A DNA stretch of 57,983 nt, the filler included, from Sluysia triapertura (taxonomy: Eukaryota): assembly GCA_046118255.1 (NCBI GenBank). It is 4 parts of 4 records of this genome, joined end to end, with 100 filler letters (N's around TTAATTAATTAA, not from the genome) between each part and the next. Parts side by side here need not be neighbours in the genome. Positions count along the whole stretch, not along the records: positions 1 to 14,888 come from JBJNIA010245431.1; 3 more parts are not named here. One strand, written 5' to 3'. Made by a program: the position numbers and the translations under genes. The notes beneath the pieces are model-generated. The model did not search any database. It was not told the DNA's origin and saw nothing but the letters and a program-made list of their open reading frames with translations. Positions 1-28,676 of the stretch are shown in pieces (position 1 is the first letter of the stretch; every line of letters starts with the position of its first letter).

Positions 1-29
1 TTTTAATATATTAAATAGTTGCCCATTTT

Positions 30-102
30 CAATAGTGACTTAATTGATTGCAACAGTGACTTAATTGATTGCAACAGTGACTTAATAGATCGAGAAACCC
101 TA
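30..102 (-). repeat. Three 21-bp tandem subterminal repeats ending in a TAGGG-type DNA transposon terminus
   Basis: CAAYAGTGACTTAATWGATYG at 30-50, 51-71 and 72-92, followed by AGAAACCCTA (reverse complement TAGGGTTTCT), which resembles a hAT-like TIR end. Confidence 0.6.
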
Positions 103-1117
103 CATTTTATGTATTAGAACCCTTAGAAATTAGTAAAAATTAAAATGAGGCGTCTCTTTAGATTATATGTTCAGCGACTAAGTAATTTACTTTACATATA
201 GTTATTTCATTTATTAAGGTTGTTATTCTAGAAACACAAATTTAACGTTATTTATTTTTCGAATTAGTTTTGGTGGAGGTTAGTAGAGAATTATAATAAA
301 TCCTAACAAGACTATAGCCAACAATTTATTTAAATAGTTTTTTATCTACTTTTAATTTCACTAAATAAATAAACGCATAAAACCTTATTACATGGCCAAC
401 TTTTGCATATATTAATTTCATTCTACATTATTATTCACTCACGTCCACTTCGTTAATTTGCATTATTTGTGTATGCTAGTACTTATTCACTGCCATTTTA
501 CCAATATTGAATTTTTATATTCGTATGGTATTTGTGTCAATCTTTAACAACCATTTTCGGTGAATTACGTTTAGTAAGCATCATTTTTATTCTTTTATTT
601 TCAAGGTTTGAATGTATTTCAAAGTATTTCTTTCAATTTTCAGATTTTCAAGCTTTTATGTAGAACATTGTCGTGCGTAGTGTAATTATTTATTTTATTA
701 AAGTTATTTAAAATTATTTTTTTCGTCAGTATATTAGCATCTTAATTACTTAATGATAAATTTTCTGTTTTAAAAAGTATGATCGAAATTGTCATTTTAA
801 TTAAGTGTTAACCAATTAAAACTAATCTTCTATCCTTTCCACGGACACATTAACTTTTAATTTATATTATATCAACAAGAATGATTTAAGTTAAATCATT
901 TTTAAAATATTTTCTGGCACAAAACCTAAACATAAATGCTTAAAATCAAGATTATGTAACAAGACTCACACTTATTACACTTCCAAAAGCAAGTGCATTT
1001 ATTTAATCAATTATAAAAATTAGTCTATCAGTAACGCAATGTGCACCAAATTAGAACACTTTAGAATGCACTTTAACTCTATATAAAAGACTTACGCATT
1101 AAAAACTTATGTAAAAT

Positions 1118-1855
1118 CTAAAATTCACCTAATTCATCTAATTTAAATTCATCTAATGACTCCAAAATAACGACTCCTTTTTTTCCATACTTATTAAAAG
1201 TTGCTTCATCAATTATTTGAATATTTCTCTGAGGTACCCATACAACTTTCATATTAGCTTTTAAGGCAGCTTCAACTCCATTTTGTGAGTCCTCAAAAAC
1301 AACTATGGATTTTGTTTCATTTTCAGTTTCCCACTTTTTCGCTGCAGCAATGAATATGTCCGGTTCAGGCTTTAAATTTTTAATTCCATCATCATCTCCA
1401 CAAATAACAAAATCAAAATAACGAAGCATTTCTCCATGACGTAATGTCTTAGTAATAAAATGCTTTCTTGAAGAAGATGTAGCAATACATAACTAAAATA
1501 CATTAAGCACATAAAATCTAACCTTTATTTTATTATCTGTAAATAATTTTAAAATTCTCAGAACACCCGGCATCATATTACAATTTGCAAAATCAGAGTT
1601 TAATGATTCATATAATTCTTTGGAAAAAATTTCAGGCTTCATTTCAATATTCGTCAGTTCTATTAGTTTTTTTGCTGATTCTATCTCACTACATCCCATT
1701 AACTGTTTTTTCATATCTATTGTGAATTCCTTATTAAACCTTTGCAATATTTTTGCAGTATGTATAGTATAGAGACTTTCAGTATCAAGCAATAGACCAT
1801 CCAAATCAAAGATTGCATATTGTATATTTGATACAAAATTTTTATCAAGAGGCAT
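1118..1855 (-). CDS. PUDP: HAD-superfamily pseudouridine-5'-phosphatase (HDHD1/PUDP-like), 2 exons (1855-1523, 1492-1118), 235 aa
   Basis: Motif I FDLDGLLLDTE. Removing the GT-AG intron 1522-1493 joins ...DNKIK to LCIATSSSRK (motif II ATSS), then KPEPDIF (motif III) and VFEDSQNGVEAA (motif IV). Confidence 0.9.
1493..1522 (-). other. 30-nt spliceosomal intron (phase 0)
   Basis: GTTAGATTTTATGTGCTTAATGTATTTTAG; excision restores a full-length HAD phosphatase frame. Confidence 0.9.
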
Positions 1856-2161
1856 TATTTTAAAATTTAATGGAAAATATAAAAGGAGGAAGCTTAGTAA
1901 AACAAAAGCATCAATATATTACATTTATTAGTTTATTGTATTTATTTTTTGTCCACACCTCTTAAAATTCATTGTTGTTTTGTCGTTACTTTTGACTTCG
2001 GTTTGAAATGATATATATAAGTGTATATGATAAGTATATAGATAAGTATATATGATAAAATATCTATAATGTTTTGTGTCGATGAGGATGTACGTCAACT
2101 TTATACGTGTGAATTTCGAAATATTAAGGTAATGTATTAATGTGAATCTCTTGAAATTTAA

Positions 2162-2640
2162 CTAATAATTCTTGGTGTTGTTTGCTTTACATGTTTTGCT
2201 ATCTCCACAAAAATAAAAGATTATAATATCATTATTAACAGTATAAAAATCAATTACTTCAAGTTCATTAATACTCAACTTGTTATTGTTCCCGTTCAGA
2301 TCTAATACTTCGAGACTTCTTAGGATGTTTCCGATTCTGGAGAAAGGATCGATGTATTGTACAAATTCGGTATCGAGAATTGTTAGTTGATCCACTATAG
2401 GCAACCGCTCCCATATTTGACACAAATTCCATCTTGGTTACTATCTAATAAGCATATTGACTTTTTGGTAACTTCATAAGAATTTGGTGAGTTAATAGCA
2501 TTTGTGGATTTATCTAATCGTATGTCGTATTCGAATTCATAATGGTATAAATTGTCAGGATAATTTTTGGTATTTTCTTCGTTTTTATTCACATGTTTTT
2601 GTTGTGATAATTCTGCGGTATAATATTTAATATCTGCCAT
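2162..2640 (-). pseudogene. Frameshifted ORF of unknown function, divergent from the Gypsy-like element
   Basis: Two overlapping minus-strand ORFs (MADIKYYTAEL... from ATG 2640; ...IVDQLTILDTEFVQYIDPFSRIG...) with protein-like composition; no family recognised. Confidence 0.35.
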
Positions 2641-3819
2641 CACATTGTTAGCCTTTTCTGTGAAAAAACTAACAATTATGATTTGTAAATAAACGTGTTC
2701 GTCTGTATATTGCACTTTACGTCTGGCCGAAGACGCAACTACAGATAAAATGTGAAAATAATTTAACGCTCCTTACAAGCAGAATTCTTTCAATGTAGTA
2801 ATTAATTTTTTTACTTTATTCCTTTCTGTAAGCTCTCACCTAATATATTTTAAAAAATATACTATTAAGTCGATATTCTTAACGCAAAATTAACGTAATG
2901 TCTTTAATTTCTTAATTAACTTAATATATTTATTTAAAAAATTTATACTCCAAGTTTTAATACTATTCTTATTAATTTTAAAACTCTTTACTCTATCTTT
3001 TTGTGAAATGAAAAATTACAAAACACCAAATTTTTATTATAAAATTGAATAATATAATAAGTAATATATAAAAAATGACATATAATATAATGCAATAATA
3101 CTTTAAAAATAAAGGGTTTAAGGTTTATTTAATTTTTAGATTTTAAAAGTTTAATTGATCCAGGTGTGATAATTGGCAATAGGTTTATAAGATTTTGAGT
3201 ATGATTTTGACACAATAAATTATTTATGTGGAAACTTAATAATTATCAACTTACGTTTACTAAAAATTCGATACGTCCAGATTTTAATTTCCCGGTAGAT
3301 GAATGAATCATTCGATTAATAGCTCCAAAAATTGATAATTTCCAGATTATAAAATGCAAATTCTTTTAGATCAATCACTTTAAATCATTTTCCAGCGATT
3401 CCAACAAGAACTTTCTTGCAAATTAACTTTTATCAACGTTGCTTTATTAAATTTCCACAAAAATGATCTCTTTATATATGATAATTATTTTGACGAGAGA
3501 AAAATTTTATAATCATTTTATTATTTTTAATATCATTAAATATGCATAAAAAATCATATAAAATTCTTTTATGGGTCCATAAAATATGAAATTAAAATAT
3601 AATTCTTTTGTGTTTATAAGATTAAAATATGATATTAAAATATGAAAATTCTTATTAAAAATATTTATAGAATTAAATTAAAAAGATTTTATTTTATTAG
3701 ATATTGAAAATAAATTATTTACAAGTTTACAAATAAAAATTAAAAATTATTTACAGAATAAAAATTTACAAACACAGTTTTATTCACTTTTACTCTTTAC
3801 ACAAAATTAAATCTAACAT

Positions 3820-3837
3820 TGGTGCCCGAAGAGAGGA
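3820..3837 (+). promoter_or_regulatory. Primer-binding site (tRNA-Lys(UUU)-like) directly after an LTR-type end
   Basis: ...ATCTAACA(3818) T TGGTGCCCGAAGAGAGGA; the first 11 nt match the tRNA-Lys3 PBS TGGCGCCCGAA at 10/11 positions. Confidence 0.7.
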
Positions 3838-4165
3838 TACTCGATGCACATCCATAAATTATAAAATATAAAGTTATAGTAAGACTATCAAAAGTGTTCA
3901 CGAGAGATTTTAATTTTGAATTTGTATTTTTATCTTTCATATTTAGATAGTGAATCTTAGAAATCGTATTAATTCAGATTTAGATCTTAGAAGTCGTACT
4001 AATTATAATTCAGATTCAGATAAAGAAAAAAATTTATATTTGAGAGCGAAAGAAAGAAGAAAGTAAAACCTAAAGATAATAAATAATAAACAAATAATAA
4101 TAAATAAAGATAAACAAATAATAAGTAAAGAAAATAAATTCATAGAAACCATATTTAAGAAGAAA

Positions 4166-5340
4166 ATGACTGATAAGATTATTACAAAAGAACAAATGGC
4201 GCAGCTTATAACCGCAATGAATAGACATCTATTAAATCAAAATCTGAAGATTGAAAAATTTTCAGGAAACGAAAACAAATTGTTAGACTTTTTAACCGAG
4301 TATAATGAAGAGGCAGACAACTTAGGCTGGAGCAATAGAAAAAAATGTTTGAAATTTGCATCATGCATAACTGGCCACGCAGCTAATGTCTTTAAATTCT
4401 TATCAGATGCAGCAAAACAGGAATGGAAAAAATTGAAAGTTGCTTTTATAAAAGATATAGTGGGGGATGACATAAACGACTCTTCAGAGAAAGAGTACAA
4501 CAACGTGATGAAACAGTGGCAGAATATTCATACCAATTAAGGATCCTAGCAGAAGAAGCATATCCATCTAAAACAAATGATGAGGAAAAACGACGAAAGA
4601 TTGATAAAAAGCTCACACAAAAATTTATTAAAGGAATAAAAAAGAATATTGGAATAATGTTAACAACATCTAATACCGAAGGATATCAAGAAACATTAGA
4701 AAAGCAAGAGAACTGGAGAAACAAATCAACGAAAAAGAACACATATAAACGCGATAACTGAAGTAAGTAAGACTATAAAGGAGAGATCCAGATCTCCAAT
4801 TTTAAAAAAAGTGAGTTAGCATGAAACACCAAAATCAATAATAAAAGAACAAATACATAGATAAAAATCAGCACAAAGTAATAATGAATTTAATAAATTT
4901 AATAAACCATTCGAAAATAAAATTAATCATAAATTTTATGAAAGTAATAGGCAATTGCAACACCAAGAAATAGTTATCCAACTCAATTTCCTAGAAGAGA
5001 ATCAATTACCTAGATACGTACCACCTAATAATTAGCCACGATCGCCAAGAAACTATAATCCAGGATACAGACATTTGAATTATACACCGTGAAATTAACA
5101 ACCAAATTATTATTCAAGGAATGAACCATCAAATTATCAATCAAAGTACTACCCAAGAAATATACAATTAAGTTCAAGATATAGACGAGCAAGTAAATCT
5201 CCAAACAGAACTCAATTTTACAATGATAATAATGATAAAACATCGATAGAAAGAAGCAAAGTAGATATATACGAGGAGAATCACTGTAATCACTGTAAAA
5301 CGTACGGACACTATGAAAAGGCGTGCCCAGAATACTCATC
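4166..5340 (+). pseudogene. gag: Retrotransposon gag (capsid plus CCHC nucleocapsid), frameshifted
   Basis: IEKFSGNENKLLDFLTEYNEEADNLGWS...ITGHAANVF...WKKLKVAF; VAEYSYQLRILAEEAYP...KFIKGI; zinc knuckle CNHCKTYGHYEKAC at 5285-5326. Confidence 0.88.
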
Positions 5341-6639
5341 AAATTTTCCTTTAGATGGAAAAAACCATGTTTATATGTTGAAGGATAATAAAAGCGAACT
5401 GACACCAGATTACGCTAGGATGGATGACGAAGCTTGTTGTGCATTGTATCAAAGAGAAAAGGTAGATAAAAAGGATGAGGAAGAAAAAGAAAAAAGAAAT
5501 CAAATGGATAACGGATTCAGAGGAGCATCAACACATGATGGCGAAGAAAACGATGATACTGATGATGATCTACTAGATACACCCAAGGCAAAGGCTGCTC
5601 AGGAAGGAACAAGAGAAATATTAATAAAATAAAACTTGGAACTTTGAGTAAAAAATATAGAGAAGGATTATTTAATGCCTTAAGAGAATTTATAATCGAA
5701 AAGGTTGAAATTGATTTAACAGAAGAAATGAGAGAAACGTTATTAAAAATAATTAGATGACAAAAATTTAATGAACACGAAAAGAAATATGCGAAAACTA
5801 TATTAAGAAATTATGGAAAACATATGAGACATAAAAATCCCAATCGAAAAATAAAAGCAGTATTACAGTTACCATAGGAAACTCGAGTATTGAAAAGACA
5901 TATTCATACAACAGGAAGATTTATTAGAAATAAAGTTATAGGAGAAATAAATTGCTACGGCATACAGATAAAAATTATGTTTAATGAAGAAGAATTAGAT
6001 GGTGACGATAAAATTGTAGATTGTGGATATCCAATTAGAGAAAATCATACAGAAAGAATAAAAATAATAATAGAGGAAAAGGATAATTTTTTAGAATAAA
6101 TATTAGGGGAAGATTGAATGAAGAATTATGATACAATAAATAATAAAAATATGGAGATACTATCAATAAACGATAACTAAATAGTCGACAACCAAATAAA
6201 TGCTAATCGAATGGACAGTAATCAAATAAATAACTATGAACAATAACCAGATAAATGATATTAAAGTAAAGGATAACCAAACGAATGATAATCAAACAAA
6301 TAATAATCAAAAAGAAAACATGCCAAATAACGTAACTAAGGCTTGAAAAGAAGTTGAAAATACATTGTTTCCAGAAGAGGTGATAGATCTAGATGATTAT
6401 GTTACATTTTATGAGCTGTTAAATAGAATAGAGAATGATAATACAGTTAAAGATGATAATTTAAAGAAAAAAGAAAATAAAACTGGAAACTGAAAGAAAA
6501 TGATAATGATGAAATACGAGAATTAATAAATAAAATTGAAAATGTAGTAAAACTAAGTATTGAAGGAAATAAGCTGTTAAATTCGAACTTATTAGGAAAA
6601 CAAATAGATCAAACAGTAATCACTCAAAACTTTCAAAGA

Positions 6640-8404
6640 TTGCTAATGAAAATTTTAATTTTATGTGGAATCAAACCAACAGTCATCCAGAGATCGGAAA
6701 TAGTTTCTCATTAGTAAACACAGATAATTGCCCAGACACTAACAAATTTATTTAATTTAGGGAACGAAATATTTCATGTATACGAAGAAAGTGGATTAAT
6801 ACGCACAGAGGTTAAGGAATGTGTAGTTAAGCGAGCTGTGAAGTTACAGTAAAGTTCCATGCGGTCAACATGGAACGGTTTATCCATTAAAAAAGAGAAC
6901 TCCTTTCATAGCGTTAATAATGTCCACAGAGACTTGCCTAGAAACTTTTCAAACTGAAAGAATAGGGATAAAAAGTGATTTAATAATTGAAGTAAAAAAG
7001 GGCATTATAAAGTACTATCGTTATTTTGCTGTAGGAAGTCACACGAAAGCAGATACGGATTTTTTACGGACGGAGATTATAATTTAGATGGAGTAACCTA
7101 TAAAACATGATCGCGACCGAATATTATATGACTGAACTAAAAACTTGGAGTGCGACTTTTGACTCGAGTACTAATAATATGATACAGGCACCAAACTGTA
7201 AAATAACGAATATAATTTGTGATACCGGAGAGTCTGTACTATTTTATAAAGTAAACAGATTTGAATGCTCATTAACTCATTTAAAAACATCAATGTTTAA
7301 CCAAACTAAAGGATTTATAAATGGAAAATTAGACGCAACACAAATTCTAAATGTTGAAAAAAGTAATAGAAACATACCCGACTACAAATCCCAGAAATAG
7401 AAGCACCAACTATTATAATGTCTACGAAATCAACAGATGGGATGGTGTTCGTCCTGAAAGAGAAAGTGACTAAGTGTGCAGAAGAGGTAATCAGCACAAA
7501 TTATCCTTGGATATTTGTTAGAAATCGACTACCAATCTCAAACGCAAAAACCGAATTAGTAGCTAGTGATGTGCAATTATATAACTATTTCAACAATAAG
7601 ATTAAATTTTATTACCATCTTGGATTGACTCAGTTAGAAAAAATTTACCAAATTCTAATGTACCGAGGCTGTCAATTAAATAAAGAATTAATAAGAACGA
7701 TTACTAACCCCGATATGGTAGCACCATTATTACTGTTGAAAGATGGAGTATTTGGGAAATCTATGAGAGAAGAGTCACGGTAAAACTATATGATAACATT
7801 GAATGTACGAAGAAGTTACCTGTAGAATACAATAACGAAAAAGATATATAGAACCAGTGACTAGAATTATAGTCCCTAAAGAAAATAAAGTCAAAAAACT
7901 AGATTGTTCAATATTAGTGTCCCCACTATATAAAATGCATGAAAATTATTTGATTTATCTATCATCGAGAATAAGAGTAGAATCTCCTCCAGCTCTAAGT
8001 TTAATAGATTTTAGTTTTCAAACGGAGAATGATATTTCGGAATGTATCAAATATCTGATATAAAGAAAGCTTGGAATGAAATATTATTAGCAATAAAAAG
8101 AGCACGAATATTAATCGAAATACTAGATGCTGCATTACCAAAAGGCGCTAAAGCACCTAATTACGAACTACCATCAACACAGAAGCACTTTGAACAAGCA
8201 GCGAAACAAACACTGCGTAAGATTTGGGGAAAATTTGCAGTCATTGGACAATTATGTTCGGGTCGCATCGAGATTTATATTGTTATTAAAGCCATTATTA
8301 TAGTGTGTACTCGAGTGCTATCAACTTACAATATATATCGGCTGAATATGGAGAATCATCACGGTATTGATCCCCTCCAAAGGTCATCATGTAGTGAGCC
8401 ATAA
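6640..8404 (+). pseudogene. env: Envelope glycoprotein, class III fusion type (chuvirus-G / herpes gB-like), fragmented
   Basis: Hydrophobic signal-like LLMKILILCG at ~6640; CKITNIICDTGESVLFY..C; NYFNNKIKF...LEKIYQILMYRGCQLNKELI..NPDMVAPLLL; ECTKKLPVEY..YIEPVTRIIV..DCSILVSPLYK; C-terminal WGKFAVIGQLCSG..IYIVIKAIIIV TM segment. The motif order matches chuvirus-type glycoproteins as I recall them. Confidence 0.75.
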
Positions 8405-8599
8405 ACATGCTGAAATAATACAAGAACTATCAAGTCCAAAAGCTCCAAAGAACTTTATTAATTATGAGAAAACTGGCGAGGTGATGGAAAATGAGGAATC
8501 TCTATATCCATTCAAAACTGTTGAAGAGATTCAAAACGAAAATAATAAAATAAATCCTATCAATAGAAAAAAATGTTATTATTTAAAGAAACACTATAA

Positions 8600-8890
8600 T
8601 GGCTATAATATCTACCAAAAAATATTAGTAAATAAATACTCTATTAAAAGACACAGAATCACAAGTTTTTGCAATTCGTTATAAATCTCTACCAACAAAA
8701 GATTAGGAAAAAATAATAATCAACAATGACTACCTAGAAGGAATAAATGGAGAGCTGATAAGCGTTAGAAGTTTCTTGGCTTATGTAGAGATAGTAAATC
8801 AAAAATGGAGAACAAGAATTTACATTTTAGATGAATGTTCAGAAAAAATGGTAATCTGTATGGACATACTACAGCAATTAAAAGACGTAA
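8600..8890 (+). pseudogene. Retropepsin-like aspartic protease domain 1 (degenerate)
   Basis: DTESQV at 8650 (D-T-G equivalent), LEGING flap, and C-terminal MVICMDIL (IxGxDxL-type motif). Confidence 0.65.
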
Positions 8891-9129
8891 TTATACATCC
8901 AACTCAAGGATTGTTAACACTAAGCGAAATAAAAGAAATTGCAACTGATCTAAACGTAATCACTATTAATGCAAATTCTATTGAAAATTTAGACATGATT
9001 TAGACAAAATATTCTAATGGAAAATGAAGACAGTTCTGAGATGGAAAATTTATCTAATACCGCGATTGATACAACGTCATCTGACAACATGTCAAATATA
9101 ACAACAACAGATAATTTAACAAGTAAAAT

Positions 9130-9450
9130 TACATTAGAAGACATAGCAGAATTACAGGAAGAGGTAATGATTTTGGAACAGAGAAACGATGAAGAGATAA
9201 TGAATATTATCAATAACATAACAAAAATATTTTCTCTAACTATCAAATTCAGAATATTTTAAAATACAAAATGGAAGATAAATTCTTAATTGTAGTATCC
9301 CAATCAAGAAACACCATCATGGCCACCATCATGGCGGGCTACCTTTCAGCGAAAAGAACCACTGAAAGGATAAAAATAAAGTATTATTGGATCAATATGG
9401 ACTGCGATATCACAAATTGGTGTAAAACAGTAAAATGTGTAATTTCTGGA
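9130..9450 (+). pseudogene. RNaseH-integrase linker plus integrase zinc-binding (H2C2) domain
   Basis: EQRNDEEIMNII...LIVV...AGYLSAKRTTERIKIKYYWINMDCDITNWCKT.KC matches GH.G..KT..RI...YYW..M..DI..W...C..C. Confidence 0.8.
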
Positions 9451-9529
9451 AGGAAGTGATAAAGGAGCAAATTAAACATGAAAGTATGCAAGATGATGAT
9501 CGCGATAATGCTAAGAAATGGAGTTAACT

Positions 9530-9800
9530 CCTTATAAATTGTAGCAGTGTGTAATAATTAATGGAAAGATAGATAGATACGGGTTCAGACGTAAGTATTA
9601 GACGATATGAAGACATACCAGAACAAGAAAAGATAACTTTAATAGAAGTACTTGAAAAGTTCGACAGAGTCGACATGGTATTTAATCGATGGAGAGTAGA
9701 AATTAAAATTGAACAATATAACTTCCACATAGAGATAGCAATAGTAGGCAATTGTCCAGAAGAAGTAATAATTGGAATTAGAAACGTTTCCGGAAATACT
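9530..9800 (+). pseudogene. Retropepsin-like aspartic protease domain 2
   Basis: IDTGSDVSI at 9573-9599, then ...VEIKIEQYNFHIEIAIVGNCPEEVIIG. Confidence 0.75.
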
Positions 9801-10574
9801 TATAAAAAGGAATAAAATTAAAAATAGATTAAAGAATCCAAACACTATAGAAATTCTACCAAATAAAAATCAGCTTATCTTTCAAGAAAGAAGACGATAT
9901 AAATATATGTTTAATGGATGAGATCAATATATAGAATCGGAAGATTTATTACAGAGATTAGAAAACACTTGCAAAAAACCCAAAAAAATATGAATAAACT
10001 GGAAACTACGGTCAATATCACGAAATCCTTTATAATTATATGCGATCTGAAACACAGACTAAACATAATAATACAAAATTGACCATTTCATCAGAAAAAG
10101 AAAATATAGAATTCTTCAGTAACATGGTAAACATGGAAATGAATTGGTTTTGAAGAACTAATATGAAAGTTGTAATGAGAATAGATGGAACACAAAAAAA
10201 TAGAAAAGGAATTTCATATCCAGTATCATATTTACTGGATTTCGTAAAAACATACTTGAATACAACACAAATAATAAATTTTCATTATAGAGGAAGAGTA
10301 TTGAACCGAGACAATGGACTATATTTAATTGATTTAGGATTTCCAATAAACTATTTGAGCGGCGATGATGAAATTACAATTACAATTGGTAGCGATGAAA
10401 ATAGCGATCCTAAATCTTCTAATGAAACACAAATACATTTAGAAACCGTAAATCGGGAATTCTATTGTGAGGTGTTTAGAGAATTATCAATAAAAAAATC
10501 AACAACGAGAAAGACTGTTACACACCGACTCACTTATTAGTCAAAACATGATGAGACGGAGAATAAATTATAAG

Positions 10575-10830
10575 AATAAATTTTGCATAACAGTAGAATT
10601 TAAAGGGAAAAGTTATAAAGTAATACTAGATATGGGAGCAACACATTCAATAATTAGATATCAAATTCTAAATGACAATATAAGAAACAAAATCATATTG
10701 TCGATTAACTATAGCTTCCATTACTGGTAGTCAAATTATTTTTATAGGAAAATTGGAAAGAGAAATTTCAATATCACAAAAAATCATTAAATGTAAAGCC
10801 AGAGTACTGTCTATACGATATTATAGAACA
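10575..10830 (+). pseudogene. Retropepsin-like aspartic protease domain 3
   Basis: FCITVEFKGKSYKVILDMGATHSII (LD[T]GATHS motif, Asp at 10629), then TGSQIIFIG flap after a frameshift. Confidence 0.75.
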
Positions 10831-11569
10831 AATTCTAGAGATATTAATGCAAAAGGAAGCTGAACTATGGAGCAGAAAAGAAGCACTTCTAAACGAAGGA
10901 AGACTACTAATGTTCCACAAAACAGAACCAAGTCCACATTAACATAATCATCTATATGAAGAATTAGAAAATGCATTAAGAACACCTGGAAATGTAGAAA
11001 GGCTAAAAAGTAGTAATTGATATCGTTTTAGAATCAGAAGAATTATTACATGAATATCCACCTCTTAAACATCAATTAAATGGCATCCCGCTTTTACTTT
11101 TGATGTCTGTACTTTTTATTTGATTCTGCCCCAACTCCTTTACCTTCATTCTATATGTACCGAGTCACAATCACAGAATGTGATATTTATTATAGGAAAA
11201 TCTTTAGTAGCTCATACGAATTTACTATAAAATACCGAATAAGAGTGTTGATATTTATCAACCTCCTACTTTTTCTGGCATTGATGTCCTGCACAATGGA
11301 TTTCAGGTGCCAAAATCTGATTATCCACCACGACTGACTAAGTCGCAAAGGCATGATTACAGACGACACCAGCTTAAAAAATTTTATAGAAAAAATGCAC
11401 GATTATGTGAGAATCTTTTCATAAAACAACACTAATTGCTTCCTAAGTATTATTAACTATAATTGTATTAATACATAAAAACCTATATAAAAATTACTTT
11501 TAAAAAATCACTCTTTGTGTATTTTTCCTTTTGTATGTATATTTCAAGTTTTGTTCTTTTTTAGTACAA

Positions 11570-12706
11570 AATCATCACAAATACTACAACAATCTCAACA
11601 TCTTCGTCGACCTCACGCCAAAGTACTTAATCAGATTAGGGCTTTCTATGCGGCGATAGACCGCTTTTGTTTAGAGAACACGACCGCGCATTTTCCCCCA
11701 CTTATTTCGCCACTGACTGTAAGCTGATGTCTGAGCTTACAGACAACTTGGCGACTCATATTTTTTCTTTATCTAGCGCACAAGCATCTATTTCTCTGCG
11801 CGGCCTCTCTAATGCTCCCGAAGTTTTTGATACCTTATATGTGGTTTATGCGCGTGGAATGGTTAGGGTATCTCTGGTGGTTGAAGGGGTTCCACTGTTG
11901 CTGGGCCTGGAGGGTTTGTCAATTTTCTACCAGGTAATGCAATGTTATGGTGGAAGCACTCCAGCTTCCAACATACATTGCCCTTTTATTCGTGCTGCCA
12001 AGAGATCCGTCTTTTCTCCCTCTTTTTTTCCGCAGCGGAAAATACAGATAATATGAACTGTTGGAGAAATGGATCATCTTATACGCATGTTCCATCCCTT
12101 TCTGCGTATGATGAGGACCGTCTCATGTTTGTGGTGTTCCATTGCGCCACAGATTTCTTGAATAATCTTCAGATTATTTGCGTGACTTGCACACCATACA
12201 ATGGCCAATTTGATACTGAGGCTCGCATTAAACCTCGATACAGAACTTCCGCAGGAACAGATGTCGACCTTCGGTTGGCTAAGAATATCGACAAAATCCG
12301 CCCATAAATAACTGGAATTTTGCGCAACAAGATTATGGTGGAGTTAAACCCACAATTTATTATTGACGCTTTGTATATTCCCTTTGGGCTGTTAAAGGAA
12401 ATTATCAATCGGTCGAACAATATTTTGGTCCCTTTTACCACATACGTTGTTTTTTGTAGGACGCGTCAAACATTACGGCTGATTTTCCCTATTTGCTCGG
12501 TGTTGACTTGTCGACAGATGGCCACAGAGTTTGTGGCTCTGTTCCACTATATTAGGGAACGCGATTTACAATTTATTACTAGGTGTAATAATCTCCCTCT
12601 CCTTCTCTTCACAAACCCCTTCTCGACTTATTTCTCCTCCTCTCAAAAAATTAAAACTTACTTCTCATTCTTCTTTTTCTACTTGTTCCTCACCCCTTTC
12701 TCGTAA
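11570..12706 (+). pseudogene. GC-richer accessory ORF of unknown function in the 3' part of the retroelement
   Basis: Chain of plus-strand ORFs (11667-12056, 11942-12307, 12320-12706) joinable by a frameshift and a single stop; base composition differs clearly from the A-rich gag/pol region. Confidence 0.5.
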
Positions 12707-12886
12707 ATTCCATGCATATACGAAGACTCATTTTTATACAGAATTTACCATCTCCTAGACGACTTAGATCCTGTAGACTTAGACTGAGTACCTTTATAAC
12801 TATCAATGATTATTATGTGATTGATTATAATAATAATTAATATTAACTTTGATTTGCGGACAAATCTTCCCGAAAGAGAAAGTATT

Positions 12887-14084
12887 TGTCAGGTTGTAAA
12901 TTTTGTAAATTAAAAAATTTGTATATTTTATGTATTTAAGTTTTATATTCTTAATTTTTATTTTATGCATTTTATTAAATTTTATTAAATAATTATTTAT
13001 CTTATATTAAAATAATAATGAAAAAAATTAAAATAATTATAAACTTAAGAAACTTAAAAAATTAAAATAAAATTGTTGGATAAAAATAAAATAAAATTTT
13101 AATATAAAATAAATTATTTAATTTTAAATAAAATAAAATTAATGTTTTGTTCAAAAGTAATTTTTGTTTTATCTTATCAATTTAATAATTTAGGTAAAAG
13201 GTTAAGATGGCGCTAGCGAATTTAATATAAATAGTTGAGATTTTAGGAGAAGAAACAGAATAAATTTTTAGCGACACAAGGAAATCACAATAAATGTTCA
13301 AGCAAAAAATTCAAGTGAAATTTAGCAAAGTTTGAATAAAAGATTAGATAATTTTATGAAAAAAGGATTTTCAATAAATAATTAATTTTAAATTTCAAAT
13401 TTAGTTTAAAAAATTTTTATTTTAATTTTAAAAAAATTATTTTGTTTTTTTAAATATAAACAAATATTTCATTTATTCAAATATAAAGAAAATTTTGCTA
13501 GGTAGATTTTTCTTTATTTTAAATTTTAAGATTTGTTTTATTACATCAAAAGTAAGATAAGAAATACGAGATGGAGAATTTTAGTACAAATATTTAAGGA
13601 ATTTTAGCAAAAGACAATTTTTTAGCTAAGAAATTACCAAATCAAATTTTTTAGTTTTTCTATGGTGAAGTAATTTTTTAATTAATAAGATTTTAGTTTT
13701 ACCTTAATAAGGAAAGCATAATATTCACTAAAAATATATACTTTTTATCTAGACCGTAACAGGCTAGAGAAACTAAACATAAAATTTGTATAATGAACCA
13801 AGGAAAATAATCCAGTGAGTGTAATTTAAAATTATTATAATTATTATTATAAGTGTTTACTGTGAGTGTTGTTTAACATTGTTTAACAGAAGTCTTCATA
13901 GAACTTTATTTTTACTTTTATAAAATAATTGTGAAAACTAGACCGTACAAGGATAGTGTAAAGTAATAAAAGTCATTTACAAGGCTAGTGTAAAATAGGA
14001 ATTTGTCATATACTAGATCGTAACACGGCTAATGTAATACAAAATAAAATAAAAATATATTTTGTTTACGACGAATATCGTACA
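12887..14084 (+). repeat. 3' LTR (LTR family A); 3' end approximate
   Basis: Follows the PPT, starts TGTCAG, has ATGGCG...TATAAATA promoter block at ~13207-13233 and repeated CTAGACCGTA..GGCTAG hairpins; similar to 19600-20400 and 38151-39062. Confidence 0.7.
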
Positions 14085-14888
14085 GTTTCTTAAGGTTTTA
14101 CATAAACGTAGCTTAGGCAGCCTATTTACTCTTTTGCGGTTCGTTTTTTAAAATCCTAATAGCACGTCTTCCACATTGATATAAACCGTGAACTCGACTC
14201 TTAGATATTATTGTGTAATTGTAAGTTTTTAGCTTTACTAATAAAAAACCCTAGCAATATTTTTAACACTCTTTAAACTTAAAAGTAATTTTAATTATCA
14301 TTTAACATTTTTACTGTCCTTAAGCCGTTTAAATACAAATATAATAAATTAGAACTTCTGCTGCAATATTTAGACGTGTTCTAGTATGCTTTTTGGTATT
14401 GATAAAAATGCGCTTTCAGTTATAACAAAAATATACGTGGTATTCAATATTTATTAGAACGTTTTTATTTTTTAACGAAATTTACAATGTAAATTCTTAT
14501 AATACTAAAACAGTGCGAATAATCGCTTTTTTGTGCAGAAAAAATTATTTTTCCATTCAATACTTATTTTGATCATTAAAAGTGGATTACCATAATGTGT
14601 ATATAATGGAATGCCATACTAAATACAGCTGTATGAATTCATAATGAGCGTAACCAATCACAATATGGTACATGATAGACTTGAGGGCGTTTGATTAGAA
14701 AATGTAGGAAAGTAGTAATAACTTGAGTATTTTAAAAGCTTACATTCACTCCTATTGATCATAGGTAACAAAGTTTTGTAAACTAAGATACAATATCACT
14801 GGATTCCTTCGTTATACTTTAAGGACATTTTTAACTTATAAGATTTAAAATTAGGATTCATTTTGTTATGAGCTGTACTATTATAAAA

Positions 14889-14988
14889 NNNNNNNNNNNN
14901 NNNNNNNNNNNNNNNNNNNNNNNNNNNNNNNNTTAATTAATTAANNNNNNNNNNNNNNNNNNNNNNNNNNNNNNNNNNNNNNNNNNNN
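14889..14988. other. Artificial contig spacer
   Basis: 44 N + TTAATTAATTAA (stops in all six frames) + 44 N. Confidence 0.98.
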
Positions 14989-17900
14989 ACTAGCTGTAAT
15001 GTTATCTATCAAATGTTTATTATTCTGAGTCTAAAATCATACAACAATTATAGATGTCAAACTTATGCTATTTGGCTATACCATTCAAGGATTTATTTTT
15101 CGCTTATTCAAAGCGAGTTTAGAAATTGTTATTTTAAATAAGATCACAAATTAAAGATGATTTTGAAAAAAACATAAAATTACTATCGAATAGTCTACTC
15201 GGTTTCCTTTTGAACAAAGCAAGACAGATTTTAAATTATTTTAAAACTAAATAATTTAGTTCCGAAGATAAATTTCGAAAAAAATAGCAATAAGTCTTTG
15301 ACAAAACTACATCGATTAGGCTACATAGATATTAATCAACAAAATAATTGCAAAACAATGTTACAAATTCTAATTTGTAACAATTATCAACAAATGGTTT
15401 GTTAATCTATCATCTATTTTAAAATGATTTTATGTTAAGTTTAAGATTGACAAACCATATAATTTCACAAACCAAGGTTTATTTTATGGAAAATATCTTT
15501 TTGTTATCCGAAGTTTTCAGATATAGCCTTTAAATGTACTACATTTATCGAACTATAACTGATTTAATTACTGATTACTTTCCAAATATTAATTTATTAA
15601 ACGAACTGTTAAATCTATTATACGAATAATTATTGAATAGTCTTCAAAAAATCAATTTAATTCTATTATGTGAATGATCAAGTATGCGTCATACTTTTGA
15701 GAACGTAGTTGTATATATAGACTATTTTTAATAGTTTGACCTGAAAGGTCTTTCAAATGTGTTTCGAAGTAAAATATTGAATTAAAATATTATTAATATT
15801 AAAATATGATATAGTGGATTTTTTATTTATTTTATTTATTTATTTTTAAGTTTTAAATTTAATTCCAAAATATTTTGCTTTGGCACCGATATTTTTGGCA
15901 CTTTAAAAATCACGTAATCAGACGAAGTAATCAGATATCATAATAATTAATAACAATATGACTATTAATTATTACATCATTCAATTCACATTGTTAATAT
16001 CAATATTACTTTTTTATATTATTGTAAACATTCTAAGTTCTTTAAATCTCTTTTCTATTATAGATAATCTTACATAATTTTACACAAATAAAATAAGAAT
16101 GTGAGTTGAGAATGTTTGGCCTGTCAATGATCTGCAGAATGAAATTATTTGCTTAAAGAATATTTATGTCTTAAACTATTTTTCTTTGTATCATATTTTA
16201 AGCCGCAACATCTTACACGAATTAAATATAATAATTTAATTTAAAATAAATAGGGAGTGTTATATGGTGAATTTTTGGGAATGTGAGTTTGTAGATATTC
16301 TAAAACTTAATAATGGTAATTCTCTTGCATCATTTTGCATTGCATTGGGAATTTAAGTATACTCTGTGTCTAATCTTTAATTTGATCTTCAGCATAAATT
16401 AACACATTATTTAAAATGTGTGTAACGAATATTAATGTCGGTGTAGAAATGTTTAAGGGACAATGCTATAAATTGTGTGAGTATTAAAGTGTATGATAAA
16501 CGATGTATAAGGACTTTGTGATTTCTAAACGTGGATTTACAGAATAATGTTATAATATTATTTAATAGTGTAAAAATATAAATAACATATCATTCCTCAT
16601 TCAAAAGTTATTCACACAAACGTAATTTTCTTTAATTAAGTTAATTAAGATTTTAATTAATTATTTATTTATTTTACCTTATTTTATTCTGTGTTTAAAG
16701 GTTTTATCATGGTTATAAAGTTGTTAGATACTTTATAAGGTACTCAGGAGGCTCTAGATTTTTTCACATTCATCATTCTGATTCCTTTTTCTGCTTTTTT
16801 ATTTCAGTTATTAATGTATTAAAATTATCTTTAATATTATTAACCATGATTTTAATTCTTGAACATTTCAAAGGTTCCAAACATTTTACAAGGTTACTCG
16901 AAGGTCTCAAAAGTTTATTAAGGTCTTGAACGTCTTCAAAGATTCCAAAATATCAACAAGGTCTCAAATGATCCTGATTTTCAGAAGTTTAAAGGTATCT
17001 TCATACTTCAAGATACCTTTCCAAACCTTACATAAGACTTCATAATGGTCTCAATACCCTAGAAAGGTCTTTGGAACTCCAAGATGTTCTTTGGTTTCAA
17101 AATGATTATAAACATTTTACTGTTCATTATTCTTGTTCTAGTAATATTTAATTATGTTTATATTATCATATTTCAGATATTTTATATCACTTTTCCTTAC
17201 ACATATTTTAAATTCTTTTACTTTTTAATCTACTTCTTACACTAACTGGATAATCCCAACAAATTCACATTTAATTACTAATGCTAATTCAATCAATTTA
17301 TCTCAATCTCTTATAATATTCGACTTATAATATTTACCTTCTTTTTATTATACTTTAAACTTATGCATTTTAATTCATTTAATACTAAACAAATGATTGC
17401 TAACTTAATAATAAAATTCTATAAATCCTTATCATGCGAATGTCAATACCAACTTTTTATTAAATCAAACTAATATTTTACAATTATTAATTTATTCTCA
17501 CCAAAACGTTAATATATTAACTTTTAAAACCAAAATTTTAAATTCAAAAACAACAATATGAATATGTATTATGTTAATGTTTATAACATACAAAATATTT
17601 ATAAATGTTTAAAAGTACAATATGACTAAAATAAAATATAAACACGATAATAATATAAAGATGATCAAATAATTTATGCTTAGAAATGGGTATTTCTAAT
17701 TTAACTTGTTAAATCTAATGGAGACTTTATCTCTAGCCAAAACTAGAGTTTTTAATGGTTTATTGTATTACATAGAATGTGTCTCCTTTAACATAGACAA
17801 AATTAACTTACAAAAATTTTAAAGGAAGGTTCGAAAATAAGTAACACCGCATAATATTAATCCAAAAGATACTATTGTCTACAATTACTGTATTCTCCTT

Positions 17901-18229
17901 GATAAGATGAATAACAATAATGCTTTTTCTGCTTCTCCGAATTCAAAGCTCGTAAATCGTTGTTACAAAGATTTTCAAAAATTGTACGTGAAAAGATTTT
18001 AAACAGAATTGTTTTGCGAGTTACTAATAATTCAGTATTTATATGTCTGAATAATATGGGCGTATCACAAGTAATTATTAAGTGATTATTATTATCAGAA
18101 GTTAATTTTCATTTATTATTATTATAATTATATTATTATTATTATTATTTTCCATCATAATTTCAGGTATTAACTGTGCACTCTAATACATTCTTATAAT
18201 GATATGAATATGTATTTTCATTTATTAGT

Positions 18230-18371
18230 GAATGATTATTCTTCAGGAACGGTTAATTAAATAAAATGTATCTAATTAGTCTGACTAACCTTCAGAAAAC
18301 TTATTTTGCTAGTTAAGTTTCTTCTACGTAGAATCACAGCAGAATGATTATTCTTCAGGAATGGTTAATTA
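18230..18371 (+). repeat. 30-bp direct repeat pair (period 112)
   Basis: GAATGATTATTCTTCAGGAAYGGTTAATTA at 18230-18259 and 18342-18371. Confidence 0.85.
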
Positions 18372-18407
18372 TCAAAATGAGTTAGATTTATCAATAATGA
18401 ATAAAAG

Positions 18408-18510
18408 TGTTAGACTTCATTGAATGGACTGACAGGGATTTATGGCTGTGACCATTAAGTATAAGTCCAATCTCACAATTTTATTTTATTATAGTTAATT
18501 ATAGTAGCAT
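18408..18510 (-). mobile_element. Degenerate, internally deleted copy of the tRNA-cassette element
   Basis: TGTTAGACTTCATTGAATGGACTGACAGGGATT... closely matches the starts of the copies at 34902 and 48730. Confidence 0.75.
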
Positions 18511-19599
18511 TATTCTCACCCAATTCATGGACATAGCTGCAAGATTCATTTTGTTTTATTATTGTTATTGAGTTTAAAAATTTTCAAGCATTCTATTTTA
18601 ACAATCAGGCATTCTCTCACACAAATAATCTGAATGTTCTTTGAGAATGAGACAGACAATAAAAACTTTGACAATTATATGGTACGGTCTTCCAAATCTT
18701 ACTCGGTGCTATAAAGAACTTGATGGCGTAATGAAACTTTACTTAACTCTGACTTGAGTATAAATTCATATTTTTTCCTTATCCCTCAGATTATGTAATT
18801 TGTCTAACTGTCCTACTATTATTTTATTCCTTTTATTTCTGATTTTGTCTAACTCACAGCTGTAAACTTTTAGTAATTTTATCATCTCGTCGATAATTTA
18901 TAATTTTTATTAAACCTTTATTTTTACTTAATTTAAATGCCGGCTTAAAGTTGTACAAACGATTTAGCATTAATTCAATATTCAATTTAACAAACAATAA
19001 ATACATAGTGAACAATGATAACATATTAAATAAACAAAGATCAAATGAAATGTTACTTCGTACATTCTGTCTCAAGCGATGTCAAAATTCTTTGATGAAC
19101 CGAGAGCAGATAATGTTGCGTCTTTAATGTTATTAATAACAATGGATTAATATCATTTCCATTTACTTAAATAGAATCTCAATAATTTCAATACTTACTA
19201 GATCAAATATAAATTATCACAAATTTTCTTATTTTAATAATGATATTTATTCAACCCCAAAATTGCGTTCTTCAATTCATATTAATAACAGTAACTCAAT
19301 AATTTAATAATTACAAAATCAAATACAGATTTCTATTAAAAGTCTCCGCTTTAACAATAATATGAATTAACTAAAAATGACTAAATCTGAGAATTAACAA
19401 TAGTTTTTATAACAATATTAAGCAAACTATAATCTATCCAAAGAAACCAGAGGTGACGCAACAAATATCAAATTGCAAGATATTTCCTCTTATGCAAAAT
19501 AGTTCTGGAGTCTGTCCGACTAACTAGGCACGATTTATATCAAAAGATGACATCCTAATTAGATTTTAAAAAGATAATTAAACAGAATTTAAAGGACTT

Positions 19600-20400
19600 A
19601 AATTAATTAGTTCCTTAAAAAATATAGTTCAGTAAATGAATAAATCTTTCTCGTCAAACTCTTAAAGTACTTGGTTAAACCAGCCTTCGTACGGTCTGGT
19701 CAATAATAATATATGTTAGGCTTTGAACCAGCCTTTTTACGGCCTGGTCAATATATGAAGATTTTAAATAAATATTAAATATGCAAATGAAAAAATTTAT
19801 TATTAAATCAAAGACAATTTAAATTAATAACACTATTTATATAATGTATAATAAAAATACGCAGTCTAGATCTTAAGTTCGACACTTAGATCAAGTTATT
19901 TTAAAAGATTTTAAGTCAGCCTTTTTACGGTCTGACATATATTAAAAAAGGTTGAGTGATATTTTATGTTCTATTGTTTTACAATTAGAACTAGAAAATC
20001 TTATACAGAAATTAATTACTTTTTCATGGAATAATGATTGAAATCTTCAACAAAATTGTAAGAGCAGCGCTGAATTTTCTAGATTGTCTTCTGTGTGTGT
20101 TTTTTCTAGATTGTGTAATGTTATTTATACATAATTTAACTTACTCGCCTCCATATTTTAAAATAGTACATTAAAACAAAAGTTTTAACTTTAATTCTGA
20201 TTTTAATTAATTAAATTTTAACTTAAATTCTGATTTTAATTTATAATACTAATGATAATATTTTATGATTTTAATTTATAATAATAATGATAATATTTAA
20301 ATAAATAAAATGAATATTAATAATGAAATAATAATGTCAAATAATAAAATGAATAGTCAACCATAATAAAATAATAATCAAATAAATAATCAAATGTAAT
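19600..20400 (-). repeat. Solo LTR-like copy of family A (boundaries approximate)
   Basis: Three hairpin motifs (19679, 19727, 19915), AGGTTGAGTG and TTCATGGAA..GAAATCTT blocks shared with 38520-38615, and a minus-strand GGCG..TATAAATA block at ~20120-20150. Confidence 0.6.
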
Positions 20401-20550
20401 AAGATAATAAATATCAAATAATAAAAGGAATAATCACCGAATCCATTAAAATATCATTGTGTGCTAATTGTGTGCCAATTGTATCAGATTGTGCCAAATC
20501 CAATAAACTGTAATGGTAAAATAAGCATAAGAAATACTTGAATTAAAGAA

Positions 20551-21075
20551 CATCACACAATATAACACTTTCATGAATGTGCAATGATCGTGGAATCGAA
20601 CACAGTGCAATTTTTCAATCAACTAAATCTTTCATATTACGTTTAAACATTTCTGGTAATAAACCAACATAAAGGGAAATTTTATTATTTACATAAATGA
20701 CAATTTAATATATCTTCTCTAGAATTCATCATAAAATCTATAAATTCTTGCAATCTATGATGTTTCAGAGTTATCACGTAAAAAATTCAATGTAATAACT
20801 ATGTAGGAAGATGATACACCTTCATGAATTTGTTTCCCTCGATCGGTATAATCTCCTTGGAATAAGTATTCAATATCATCTGGTAAACCAATATATGAAA
20901 TATATCGCCCATGTGTATCTCCATAGATTTCAGCTTTTTATTAGGTTGAAACGAAATTACTTTTTGGACTATATGGTTCACGTTCAAAATATCTTTAAAA
21001 TATAATTTAACCGGTTTTCCTGTTTATTTTGGACATACAATAGTTCTATTATTTCCGTTAAATTTAAAGTTACAT
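20551..21075 (-). pseudogene. PP1: Ser/Thr protein phosphatase 1 catalytic subunit pseudogene (PPP family)
   Basis: Minus-strand translation: IYGDTHGRY (GDxHG, 20922-20908), YLFQGDYTDRGKQ (GDxVDRG, 20856-20836), LRDNSE..IARIYRFYDEF*RRY (cf. LRGNHE..INRIYGFYDECKRRY), ..ILCD. Stops and deletions throughout. Confidence 0.88.
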
Positions 21076-21202
21076 TTTCGCATTTGATGAGAAACAGGAT
21101 CACTGATTTTATTTAAATTGTTTTGCTTAAATTGTTTATTTAAATTTCACCATAAAAATTTTTTACTAATTTAATTATATAATAATGATAATATAATAAT
21201 AA

Positions 21203-21244
<42 letters not shown>

Positions 21245-21263
21245 ATTATTATTATTATTATTA
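21203..21263. repeat. (ATT)n microsatellite
   Basis: Long ATT run; similar runs at ~18115-18150, 32468-32503 and 46790-46838. Confidence 0.9.
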
Positions 21264-23119
21264 CAGCAATAATTGAAAAATAATAATAATGTCGGTTTTT
21301 AACTAAGAGAATAGTAACGTTTAATCCTTTAGCTAGATCACGATTATTTCTTCCTTTGTCTAACGTATCATTAATAAAGTGAACAACGTTAATGTTATTT
21401 CTTCCAAAGTGAGAAATATTTGAGACATGAGCTATGTCAAATAAATCATAAAATGTGTGATGAATTTTAGTTTCATTTGGGATTTTTTAAATGCTACATA
21501 ATTTTTGCAAGATCTACATATAACAAAAACAGCTTTATCAATGGTCTTTTCATAAACATAAACATATGAATTTGAATAATATTATTTTTCATGAAACATT
21601 AATTAAATGACCTTTAATGAATTTAAATAATGATAAAGCCACTTTAAATTACTTCTGTTGGGATTAGTGAAAGATAAATATCGATATAAGGGTCAGGACT
21701 GAGGATAATAGAATAAGGTGAATGTTATTGAAGAATTAAGATAAAGTATTATGATGAACTGTAATAGTAAAATAAGCATAAGAAATACTTGAATTAAAAC
21801 AAATTAATGAGAAATATGAAGAAATAACCCTTTAAAAGGTTTTATTTGTTAAAATATTAAAGTTCATTTGTTAATTAACTTAATTAAAATTTGTTTAATT
21901 TGATAATTCAATAAAAATGTTTGCTCATGATATAATAATATTGAGTTTTATTAGTATTTTTAATGATGAAGTTTGCGAAGCTTGTCAACGTTGATAACGT
22001 AATTTATAATTTAATTTTTATAATTTATAATTTATAATTTTTATAATTTAAAATTAAAGTTAAATATAAGAATTAATAATATATATATCAAATTAATGCT
22101 TATAGAGAGACCAATTCAAACATGTTATTGAACTTGACGTGCAACTACAATTGACGCATAACGTATTAATGCGGAATATTCCTTTGAGAAATAAATTTAA
22201 TGTTTCATTAATTTTATCTTTAAATTAAGTTGACAAATTATTAATATAATAACAATATAATAATGATTTTTAATGTTAATTAGATGGTTTCCAAAGGATA
22301 AAGAGATTGTCTACCACAAATCCCATTATCTTAGCATAATTAGAATGATAATGACGTTGAACATAGACGGAAATTGCTGTCAAAATCTATAAAATTGGTG
22401 GACTTATTGGCGTATAAAATAAAAACGACAGCTTTAATTTCCGTCTTGTTCAATTTCTGATTTGTATTTTCTCTAATTATCTTAAAATTGCTATATAAGA
22501 GTTACATTTCTGCAAGAAAAACAGAAGTGAAGCCGACGTTAAGACGGATTAAAGAAAAATCAAATTAATTTTTCAACTGCAGGGAGGCTGCTCTAGTTCA
22601 TTAGTGGATAACGGTGACATTAAAGTTATTTCTTTAGTAATTGTCTAAAATAAACCATTTTCTTTTTAGAACAAGGATTAGTCATACATTTCTTATTGTT
22701 TATATTTTGCATTAATCCGGGTGCTAAAGTTTAAATAAGTTGTATCATCAATGGTTGTGATTTAGCTTTAAAGAATAATTTTCATTTTTATAAAGAGTAA
22801 TTTGTATTGTCATAGTTATAAAGAGTAGTTTATATATTTTCGCTGTAATCTTGTGATAATATAAAAAATATATCGAGATTTTGAATTTATTTAGTTATTG
22901 AGTTTTAATTTAATAAGTTTAGGAAAATAAAATTATTAAAAGACACAACGGTTCCGTAAACCTTTCTAGCCTCTGGATATTTCTGATAAAAGTCAGGATG
23001 ACTGCTAAATATTAACCCTTTGCGCGATTAATAAAAAAGAAAATAATTATTTTCAAGATTATATATACTTATTTGGTTTATAGTAAATTGTGTTATCAAA
23101 TTGTAAGTAAATATAATTT

Positions 23120-28109: not shown

Positions 28110-28676
28110 TCATTTTGTTTTTCTTTGAATAAAATTTTTTACCTGTTCTAATAACCAGTCAAAACCTTGCTGCAATCCTTCTCCAGTTAAGGCATTACTA
28201 GATACAATATTCCATGTATGATCTTTAACTTCATCAAGACATAGAATTTGTGTACACTTAACACTTGTTACTGCATCTTTGGCATCCATTTTATTAGCAA
28301 AAAACAAAATTGGTACTTTTCTTAAACCTTTATCACTTAATATAGTGTCTAATTCATCCTTTGCGACCACCATTCTTAAATGATCAGAACTATCTATAAC
28401 AAATATTATTGCATCACTATCTTTAATATAAGTATTCCACAAGTTACGATAACGACCTTGTCCACTCATATCAAAACAGGTTAAGTTTAAACCTTTGGTA
28501 CAAATTTTTTCTACGTTAAAACCAATAGTTGGTACTATATCATGACTCTGGATATTTGGTGGTTTTATTTTATTTAGAATAGTAGTTTTGCCACTATTAT
28601 CTAAACCAACTACTAAAACTTTAGCTTCTTTTTTACGTGCACCAAAAAAGCTAATAAGAGATTCCAAAAATCCCAT
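28110..28676 (-). CDS. ARL6: ADP-ribosylation factor-like protein 6 (BBS3), intronless
   Basis: MG N-terminus, [14 protein letters not shown], the ARL6-diagnostic [40 protein letters not shown] and GEGLQ.G.DWL. Confidence 0.95.

Follow-up and report, generated by a model that had tools for sequence, protein, structure and literature searches.

A decayed, highly repeated retrovirus-like element of Sluysia triapertura with a fusion glycoprotein and three retropepsin-like domains, and no reverse transcriptase in the copy analysed

Burro, a giant planarian element that is gypsy-like, carries an envelope protein in frame between gag and the protease, with matches to mononegaviral fusion proteins, together with a Ubi2/SUMO-like domain (PMC6431247). 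As described there, Burro has one protease (PR), followed by dUTPase, reverse transcriptase (RT), RNase H (RH) and integrase (IN); its polyprotein measures about 5000 amino acids and the element more than 30 kb (PMC6431247). Elements of the GAG-ENV-POL type with a gB-type envelope have been catalogued in Platyhelminthes, Nematoda and Bryozoa (PMC13524379). This survey demanded a full-length RT and integrase, so that RT-less derivatives were left out by design, and in its main text the word 'protease' occurs once, with multiple proteases going unmentioned (PMC13524379). RT-less families are known from the plant ATHILA lineage, in which those with only gag and protease outnumber the autonomous ones (934 versus 440, of 2322; 10.64898/2026.03.20.713144). 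Retropepsins (clan AA) share the active-site consensus D-T/S-G-A (PMC7072860). The general statement of the original prediction that LTR elements normally have one protease agrees with the literature examined. No LTR element with multiple proteases and no env-bearing element devoid of RT was found in the literature searched, a body that lies outside the Repbase reports and most subscription papers; descriptions of planarian elements in Repbase, Grohme 2018 or Sacco 2022 may already mention extra proteases.

The window analysed here is the whole stretch of 57,983 nt from Sluysia triapertura (GCA_046118255.1), with a GC content of about 25%. Within positions 1 to 14,888 (JBJNIA010245431.1) lies one decayed copy of an element of about 7 kb (a region of about 6.9 kb) that is Ty3/gypsy-like, retrovirus-like and highly repeated. 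On the plus strand, a primer-binding-site (PBS)-like sequence is followed by gag, env, a first protease (PR1), an integrase H2C2 domain, a second protease (PR2), a predicted ubiquitin/SUMO-like domain (UBL) and a third protease (PR3):

3820..3837, plus strand: PBS-like sequence starting TGGTGCCCGAA (from the sequence)
4163..5330, plus strand: gag, with a capsid-like part, a low-complexity linker and a CCHC knuckle (Pfam, translation)
5662..6100, plus strand: strongly repeated coding block between gag and env (translation, summed depth)
6490..8347, plus strand: gB/Monjiviricetes-type fusion glycoprotein (env), frameshifted (Pfam PF24664)
8610..8886, plus strand: PR1, likely retropepsin interrupted by stops and a frameshift; the triad at 8650 is non-canonical (alignment to PR2)
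8887..9330, plus strand: linker rich in Ser, Thr and Asn, and a helical segment leading into H2C2 (spacing, inferred sister contig)
9331..9460, plus strand: degenerate integrase H2C2 zinc-binding remnant (Pfam PF17921)
9550..9790, plus strand: PR2, retropepsin with a canonical DTGS at 9576 (Atlas, Pfam)
10157..10390, plus strand: predicted ubiquitin/SUMO-like (beta-grasp) domain (Atlas, single-sequence model, fold matches)
10581..10845, plus strand: PR3, retropepsin with a non-canonical triad at 10629, spread across three frames (Pfam for the N-terminal half, PDB matches, sister contig)
10846..11020, plus strand: short tail ending at a stop (skew profile, summed depth)

An excess of A over T marks the plus strand, with the AT skew being positive from about 4000 to about 11000 or 11020, where it stops. 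Such a single strand bias over about 4000 to 11020 is as expected of one coding unit. Stops and frameshifts are found throughout the translated element, and the intact open frame of a gB-type GAG-ENV-POL errantivirus is not present. Disabled at many places by stops and frameshifts and lacking an LTR pair, the present copy is dead, and no function is to be expected of it. A second copy inside the window was detected neither by tblastn with 10 pieces of the element nor by blastn, and no LTR pair scored above shuffles (53 versus 44 +/- 6, with a shuffle maximum of 64). The PBS-like site starts one base past a CA (in the region 3818-3830) that would be the end of the 5' LTR, and a 3' LTR matching this putative end was not found. 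The sequence at 3820 may resemble a tRNA-Lys primer site. Another stretch that by eye looks like the primer site of an LTR element, TGGCGCTAGCG, lies in AT-rich surroundings at 13208-13222. Troyka (PMC12440569) was also considered; a comparison with its CG termini calls for an LTR pair, and none was found here.

Several features elsewhere in the window are recorded in their own right. An intact, intronless Arl6/BBS3-like GTPase gene lies at 28110-28715 on the minus strand (E 2.7e-72 to Arl6) and points to a ciliated host. On the same strand, 23120-23700 holds a proteasome AAA-ATPase gene that is devoid of introns, carries stops, seems to have gaps inside it and is probably a decayed retrocopy, and 1118-1918 holds a HAD-family hydrolase in two open frames with a short intron-like gap between them. 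A short SINE-like repeat with a tRNA B-box-like motif occurs in five copies (18408, 30556, 34764, 34902 and 48730); no tRNA was found in the window with ARAGORN. Decayed fragments at 51000-52600 include a gypsy-integrase-like C-terminal motif (TGPFR) on the plus strand and possibly protease-like text on the minus strand, with no Pfam match at E 0.01. A GC-richer block (38-45%) of low copy at 11640-12706 has a long plus-strand frame with one stop (11885-12703) and no Pfam match. The runs of N around TTAATTAATTAA at 14889-14988, 30916-31015 and 43492-43591 are artefacts and not biology.

The gag region is interrupted by stops and frameshifts, and its two hallmarks, a capsid part and a CCHC knuckle, are weakly supported as gypsy-type gag by Pfam (Retrotrans_gag, E 0.041; zf-CCHC, E 0.34). 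The knuckle itself is visible in the translation at 5285-5326. The block that follows is strongly repeated (summed depth 10273 in bin 5788-6198), and a model of its 5710-6093 part was poor (pLDDT 41) and returned generic helical fold matches only. In env, PF24664 matches the frame with an E value of 1.1e-14 and two segments, 7400-7702 and 8039-8347, with 1.3e-8 and 2.4e-8, and a hydrophobic segment is present at the C-terminus. A gB-type env lies between gag and PR1, as in GAG-ENV-POL errantiviruses. The same gag-env-protease order and type of env characterize the elements exemplified by Smed_errantivirus_1-6 (PMC13524379). Spaced motifs common to the env of the window and the six Schmidtea errantivirus env rows given in supplementary file 2 of that survey can be seen by eye (PMC13524379). 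By this likeness the host, an AT-rich and probably ciliated animal, may be a flatworm.

The original prediction placed three protease motifs on this locus, and DTESQV from 8650, IDTGSDVS from 9573 and LDMGATHS from 10626 are indeed found at these positions, all on the plus strand. A pattern accepting all three occurs at only 3 places in the six frames of the 58 kb window and in 0 of 1000 shuffles of 8600-10830; having been written afterwards and fitted to the motifs, it demonstrates that chance seldom yields such motifs and nothing more. In the present copy the canonical D-T/S-G triad is kept by PR2 only, PR1 and PR3 departing from it. PR2 has strong support from its sequence as a retropepsin. 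The ESM Atlas assigns it to the RVP cluster with 0.95 (184 of 256 features, recognition 2516), and the ten best family-assigned matches all belong to the RVP family or clan; Pfam RVP matches it at no better than E 0.08-0.13. Support for PR3 is moderate. Its N-terminal half matches Asp_protease_2 (E 0.0063), RVP (0.022) and gag-asp_proteas (0.025), all below the curated Pfam cut-offs, and lentiviral proteases (E 0.22-1.8) account for 9 of its 11 matches to PDB sequences at E<=10, while the C-terminal half, which lies in two other frames, has no Pfam match of its own. PR1 found no family match in Pfam, PDB, PHROGs or NCBIfam. About 70 of its residues, reaching from the catalytic Asp through the closing hydrophobic strand, align to PR2 with a score of 51 versus 25.7 +/- 4.9 for shuffles, a value reached by 0 of 1000. 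PR1 is likely a retropepsin by this comparison, its one line of evidence, and is the weakest of the three. PHROGs and NCBIfam gave nothing relevant for PR2 or PR3 either, and PDB sequence searches with PR1, PR2, the UBL, H2C2 and the tail nothing informative. The claim of three retropepsins holds well for PR2, less firmly for PR3 and for PR1 only by way of PR2. Family tools back two proteases and likeness to PR2 the third, rather than the single HMM-supported protease that had been named as fatal to the claim.

The mutual divergence of the three domains, also part of that claim, is borne out at the DNA level, where no similarity among them exceeds shuffles (p 0.46-0.54). They are therefore not recent duplicates, and a recent tandem duplication of the protease was ruled out on this ground. 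In protein comparisons, PR1-PR3 and PR2-PR3 are marginal (p 0.04 and 0.06, for the N-terminal half of PR3 only).

Between PR2 and PR3 lies an open frame of 128 codons (10154-10540) with a domain that did not figure in the original prediction. The Atlas leads to PF11976/PF00240 at 0.84, which is sub-threshold, and no Pfam match was obtained. A single-sequence model of low confidence shows a beta-alpha-beta-beta-beta order (pLDDT 43), and by their titles about 42 of its top 50 fold matches are beta-grasp proteins (Z 3.1-4.3). Each of these lines is weak; combined, they make it likely that 10157-10390 adopts a ubiquitin-like fold.

The order of protease and H2C2 is that of gypsy elements. As had been predicted, the H2C2 domain sits between the first two proteases: Integrase_H2C2 passes the Pfam cut-off at 9331-9429 (E 7.6e-7; 29.6 bits versus 25.5), a match that spans positions 17-49 of the 59 in the profile. 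The domain is degenerate, not all zinc ligands being readable within one frame; it is preceded by a 12-nt tandem duplication and no catalytic core follows. The predicted lack of RT, RNase H and integrase core likewise stands up to a six-frame HMM scan of 2-14.8 kb and a motif scan. No Pfam match to RVT_1, RNase H or rve was obtained in the plus frames of 3800-11200 and 10700-14800 or the minus frames of 2000-14800, and no YxDD, LPFG, DxG or GPY/F motif was found in 3800-11100 on either strand. A decayed RT is within reach of this method, as the same Pfam scan detected one at 36-37 kb. This belongs to a decayed non-LTR retrotransposon at 35000-37500 on the minus strand, with an RVT_1 match at E 3e-10 and a C-terminal Cys/His-rich region. 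A stronger argument than the scans is spacing. The segment 8887-9330 is where a canonical pol would hold RT and RNase H. The gaps leave no room for RT, RNase H or an integrase core: PR1 ends 245 nt short of the helical segment that precedes H2C2, PR2 begins 90 nt after H2C2, and the last stop comes 175 nt after PR3. Lacking these, and with them the PR-RT-RH-IN series with a gypsy-type RT, the element is filed as a Ty3/gypsy derivative and not as an autonomous member.

Repetition of the element was followed in a public sequencing run (X1), the sole run with this stretch and possibly the source of the assembly, so that it is not independent. No RNA run is listed as containing the stretch, which is no measure of its expression. 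Mapping its contigs to 2500-14800 at 80% likeness placed 4544, of which 276 are at least 99% alike and 3531 less than 95%. The region 3733-10719 comprises 17 bins. Summed depth, an indication of family size and not a copy number, ranges from 3629 to 21789 in 16 of them and is 1182 in the other, compared with 439-855 in three upstream bins and 21-29 for the listed contigs identical to the locus. The family is large and every coding block is repeated. In 10720-11130, which takes in the tail, summed depth is at background (518). A second high-copy block directly follows the element at 11131-11541 (summed depth 13388, with a different strand bias); it has no Pfam match and does not match the sequence in front of the primer site.

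The mapping comprises 5548 pieces, 212 joints and 2213 loose ends, and sister copies were assessed on the best 8, 15 and 6 of these, respectively. A diverged sister contig covers PR1 (8567-8985, 50 other letters in 426), and a second one of similar depth starts near 8955, about 31 letters before the end of the first, and reaches at least to about 9139, as judged from contig ends. On the evidence of these ends, one sister appears to run from PR1 into the segment before H2C2 without an RT. A further sister contig (10323-10752, 47 other letters in 422) joins the UBL frame to PR3. Across 9460-9560, between H2C2 and PR2, the best 8 of the 5548 pieces include no sister that bridges the segment, the only contig being that of the locus itself (9187-9617). 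Summed depth, 5244-8468 before bin 9487, is 14941-21789 from there on, which could be the mark of a join. No full-length sister is among the pieces listed, and sisters bearing RT could be hidden beyond these best 8 of 5548. Searches further afield yielded no relative. HMMER with one PR2-PR3 frame, a query largely off-frame, gave 0 matches at E<=0.001; homologue searches gave 0 matches for the PR1-H2C2 frame and the UBL open frame against longer proteins and for the env region against proteins of 1595-5075 aa, and returned no Burro sequence. Exact look-up matched 0 of 6, and neither viral contigs searched with env, PR2 and gag nor metagenomes searched with env and the UBL open frame yielded a confirmed relative.

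Compared with described systems, the locus shares with Burro and GYPSM1 a CCHC gag, a fusion-protein env before the protease, a SUMO-like domain (here predicted), a long AT-rich coding region and many copies (PMC6431247). It differs from Burro as described in having three proteases, a predicted UBL after PR2, no RT, RH or IN core and a length of only about 6.9 kb (PMC6431247). The likeness of the Ubi2/SUMO-like domain of Burro to the one found here extends to beta-grasp leads only (Atlas 0.84, Z<=4.3), and its position is another (PMC6431247). None of the Burro accessory families MATH, BIR, BCL2, ankyrin and dUTPase is matched by Pfam in the plus frames of 3800-11200. Non-autonomous ATHILA elements are similar in keeping gag and protease, in having lost RT, RNase H and integrase by internal deletion and in being abundant, but they form a plant lineage for which no viral fusogen, extra protease or UBL is described in the source (10.64898/2026.03.20.713144). 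Flatworm elements with env placed before the protease have been described earlier; the unusual part is the three proteases without an RT, as seen in a dead copy.

The absence of a polymerase may have more than one history. If the family were autonomous and built like Burro, PR1, H2C2, PR2 and the UBL would be accessory, PR3 would be the true pol protease, and intact sisters would continue after it with RT, RNase H and integrase, the present copy being truncated at its 3' end. The fall of summed depth to background just inside PR3 agrees with such a truncation, as do the lack of a 3' LTR, the start of a different repeat near 11130 and the tail after PR3, which we take, by eye, to be loosely like the linker preceding a gypsy RT. 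Burro polyproteins of about 5000 aa, too, stack accessory domains before PR-RT-RH-IN (PMC6431247). Yet no RT motif occurs in the 175 nt over which the sense bias continues beyond PR3, up to a stop, and the tail has no RT match in Pfam or PDB, nor any family or PDB match of note. An H2C2 directly behind PR1 is explained most simply as a leftover of the pol that the element itself once had, and the SUMO-like domain of Burro precedes env rather than following it (PMC6431247). We regard this history as doubtful. A chimera is unlikely as well. Here, an internally deleted gag-env-PR1-H2C2 element would have been joined near 9460-9560 to PR2-UBL-PR3 of another family, and the set of three proteases would be local to this site. 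The second outcome that had been named as fatal to the claim, PR2 and PR3 coming from unrelated fragments, would then apply. The approximate doubling of summed depth from bin 9487, the missing sister contig across the junction among the best 8 of 5548 pieces, the proteases having no DNA similarity to each other and the richness of the genome in decayed repeats are all in keeping with a join. On the other hand, depth varies 1.7-fold within env alone, which makes a twofold step weak evidence, and strand and compositional bias are equal on both sides. The 90 nt between the end of H2C2 and PR2 show no inserted LTR or target-site repeat, the junction is absent from the best 15 of 212 joints, and the second block alone would still hold two proteases flanking a UBL.

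In the proteins DDI1 and DDI2, too, a retropepsin is preceded by a ubiquitin-like domain, the order in DDI1 being UBL, linker and retropepsin. Capture of a host gene of this kind would make UBL-PR3 something other than a retroelement protease; the domain order and the presence of intron-poor or decayed host genes in the window speak for it. Against it, at E<=10 Pfam matches the N-terminal half of PR3 to Asp_protease_2, RVP and gag-asp_proteas, with the DDI1-type family absent, and its 11 PDB matches include lentiviral proteases and no Ddi1/2. Unlike DDI1/DDI2, with neither a DDI1-type family nor a Ddi structure match, PR3 lies inside a repeat; no UBA-like tail was detected, and the base composition is that of the element. 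Capture is highly improbable.

Beyond the domain order, the three enzymes missing from the present copy and the repetition, all of which are seen directly, we favour, at a probability of roughly one half, a family with gag, env, PR1, H2C2, PR2, a predicted UBL and PR3 that likely spread non-autonomously on the enzymes of an intact GAG-ENV-POL relative. Its ancestor would have been an element of the flatworm type with env in frame upstream of pol. RT and RNase H would have been lost between PR1 and H2C2 prior to amplification of the family, leaving these two domains as the remaining ends of the original pol, and the integrase core would have been replaced by the PR2-UBL-PR3 block. A diverged sister appears collinear across the PR1-H2C2 junction, which favours a loss there at the level of the family. 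The original prediction had offered either a non-autonomous partner that supplies particles, envelope and proteases while borrowing RT and integrase, or a multi-protease element that later lost pol by deletion; of this, the contig ends of the sister favour the loss of RT and RNase H from the family at PR1-H2C2.

In the favoured reading of a non-autonomous family, its own proteases would cut one polyprotein into capsid and envelope, and mixed particles would receive RT and integrase from a helper. No element serving as helper was identified. Host ubiquitin/SUMO pathways may be the target of the UBL-PR3 end, which would then serve as an accessory module comparable to the accessory domains of Burro. 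More speculatively, and unlikely on present evidence, the family may, as a retroelement, have built a DDI1-like UBL-retropepsin independently, having lost RT and integrase and kept capsid and fusogen, with a protease-UBL-protease cassette aimed at ubiquitin/SUMO or the proteasome and selected in many copies.

Were the arrangement only that of a truncated or chimeric relic, the locus would be ordinary. If it is a trait of the family, env-carrying invertebrate elements would have abundant RT-less satellites that are invisible to surveys requiring an intact pol, and extra retropepsins together with a ubiquitin-like domain could persist as accessory modules. The 'tinkering' with host ubiquitin pathways proposed for Burro would then become testable in a small element.
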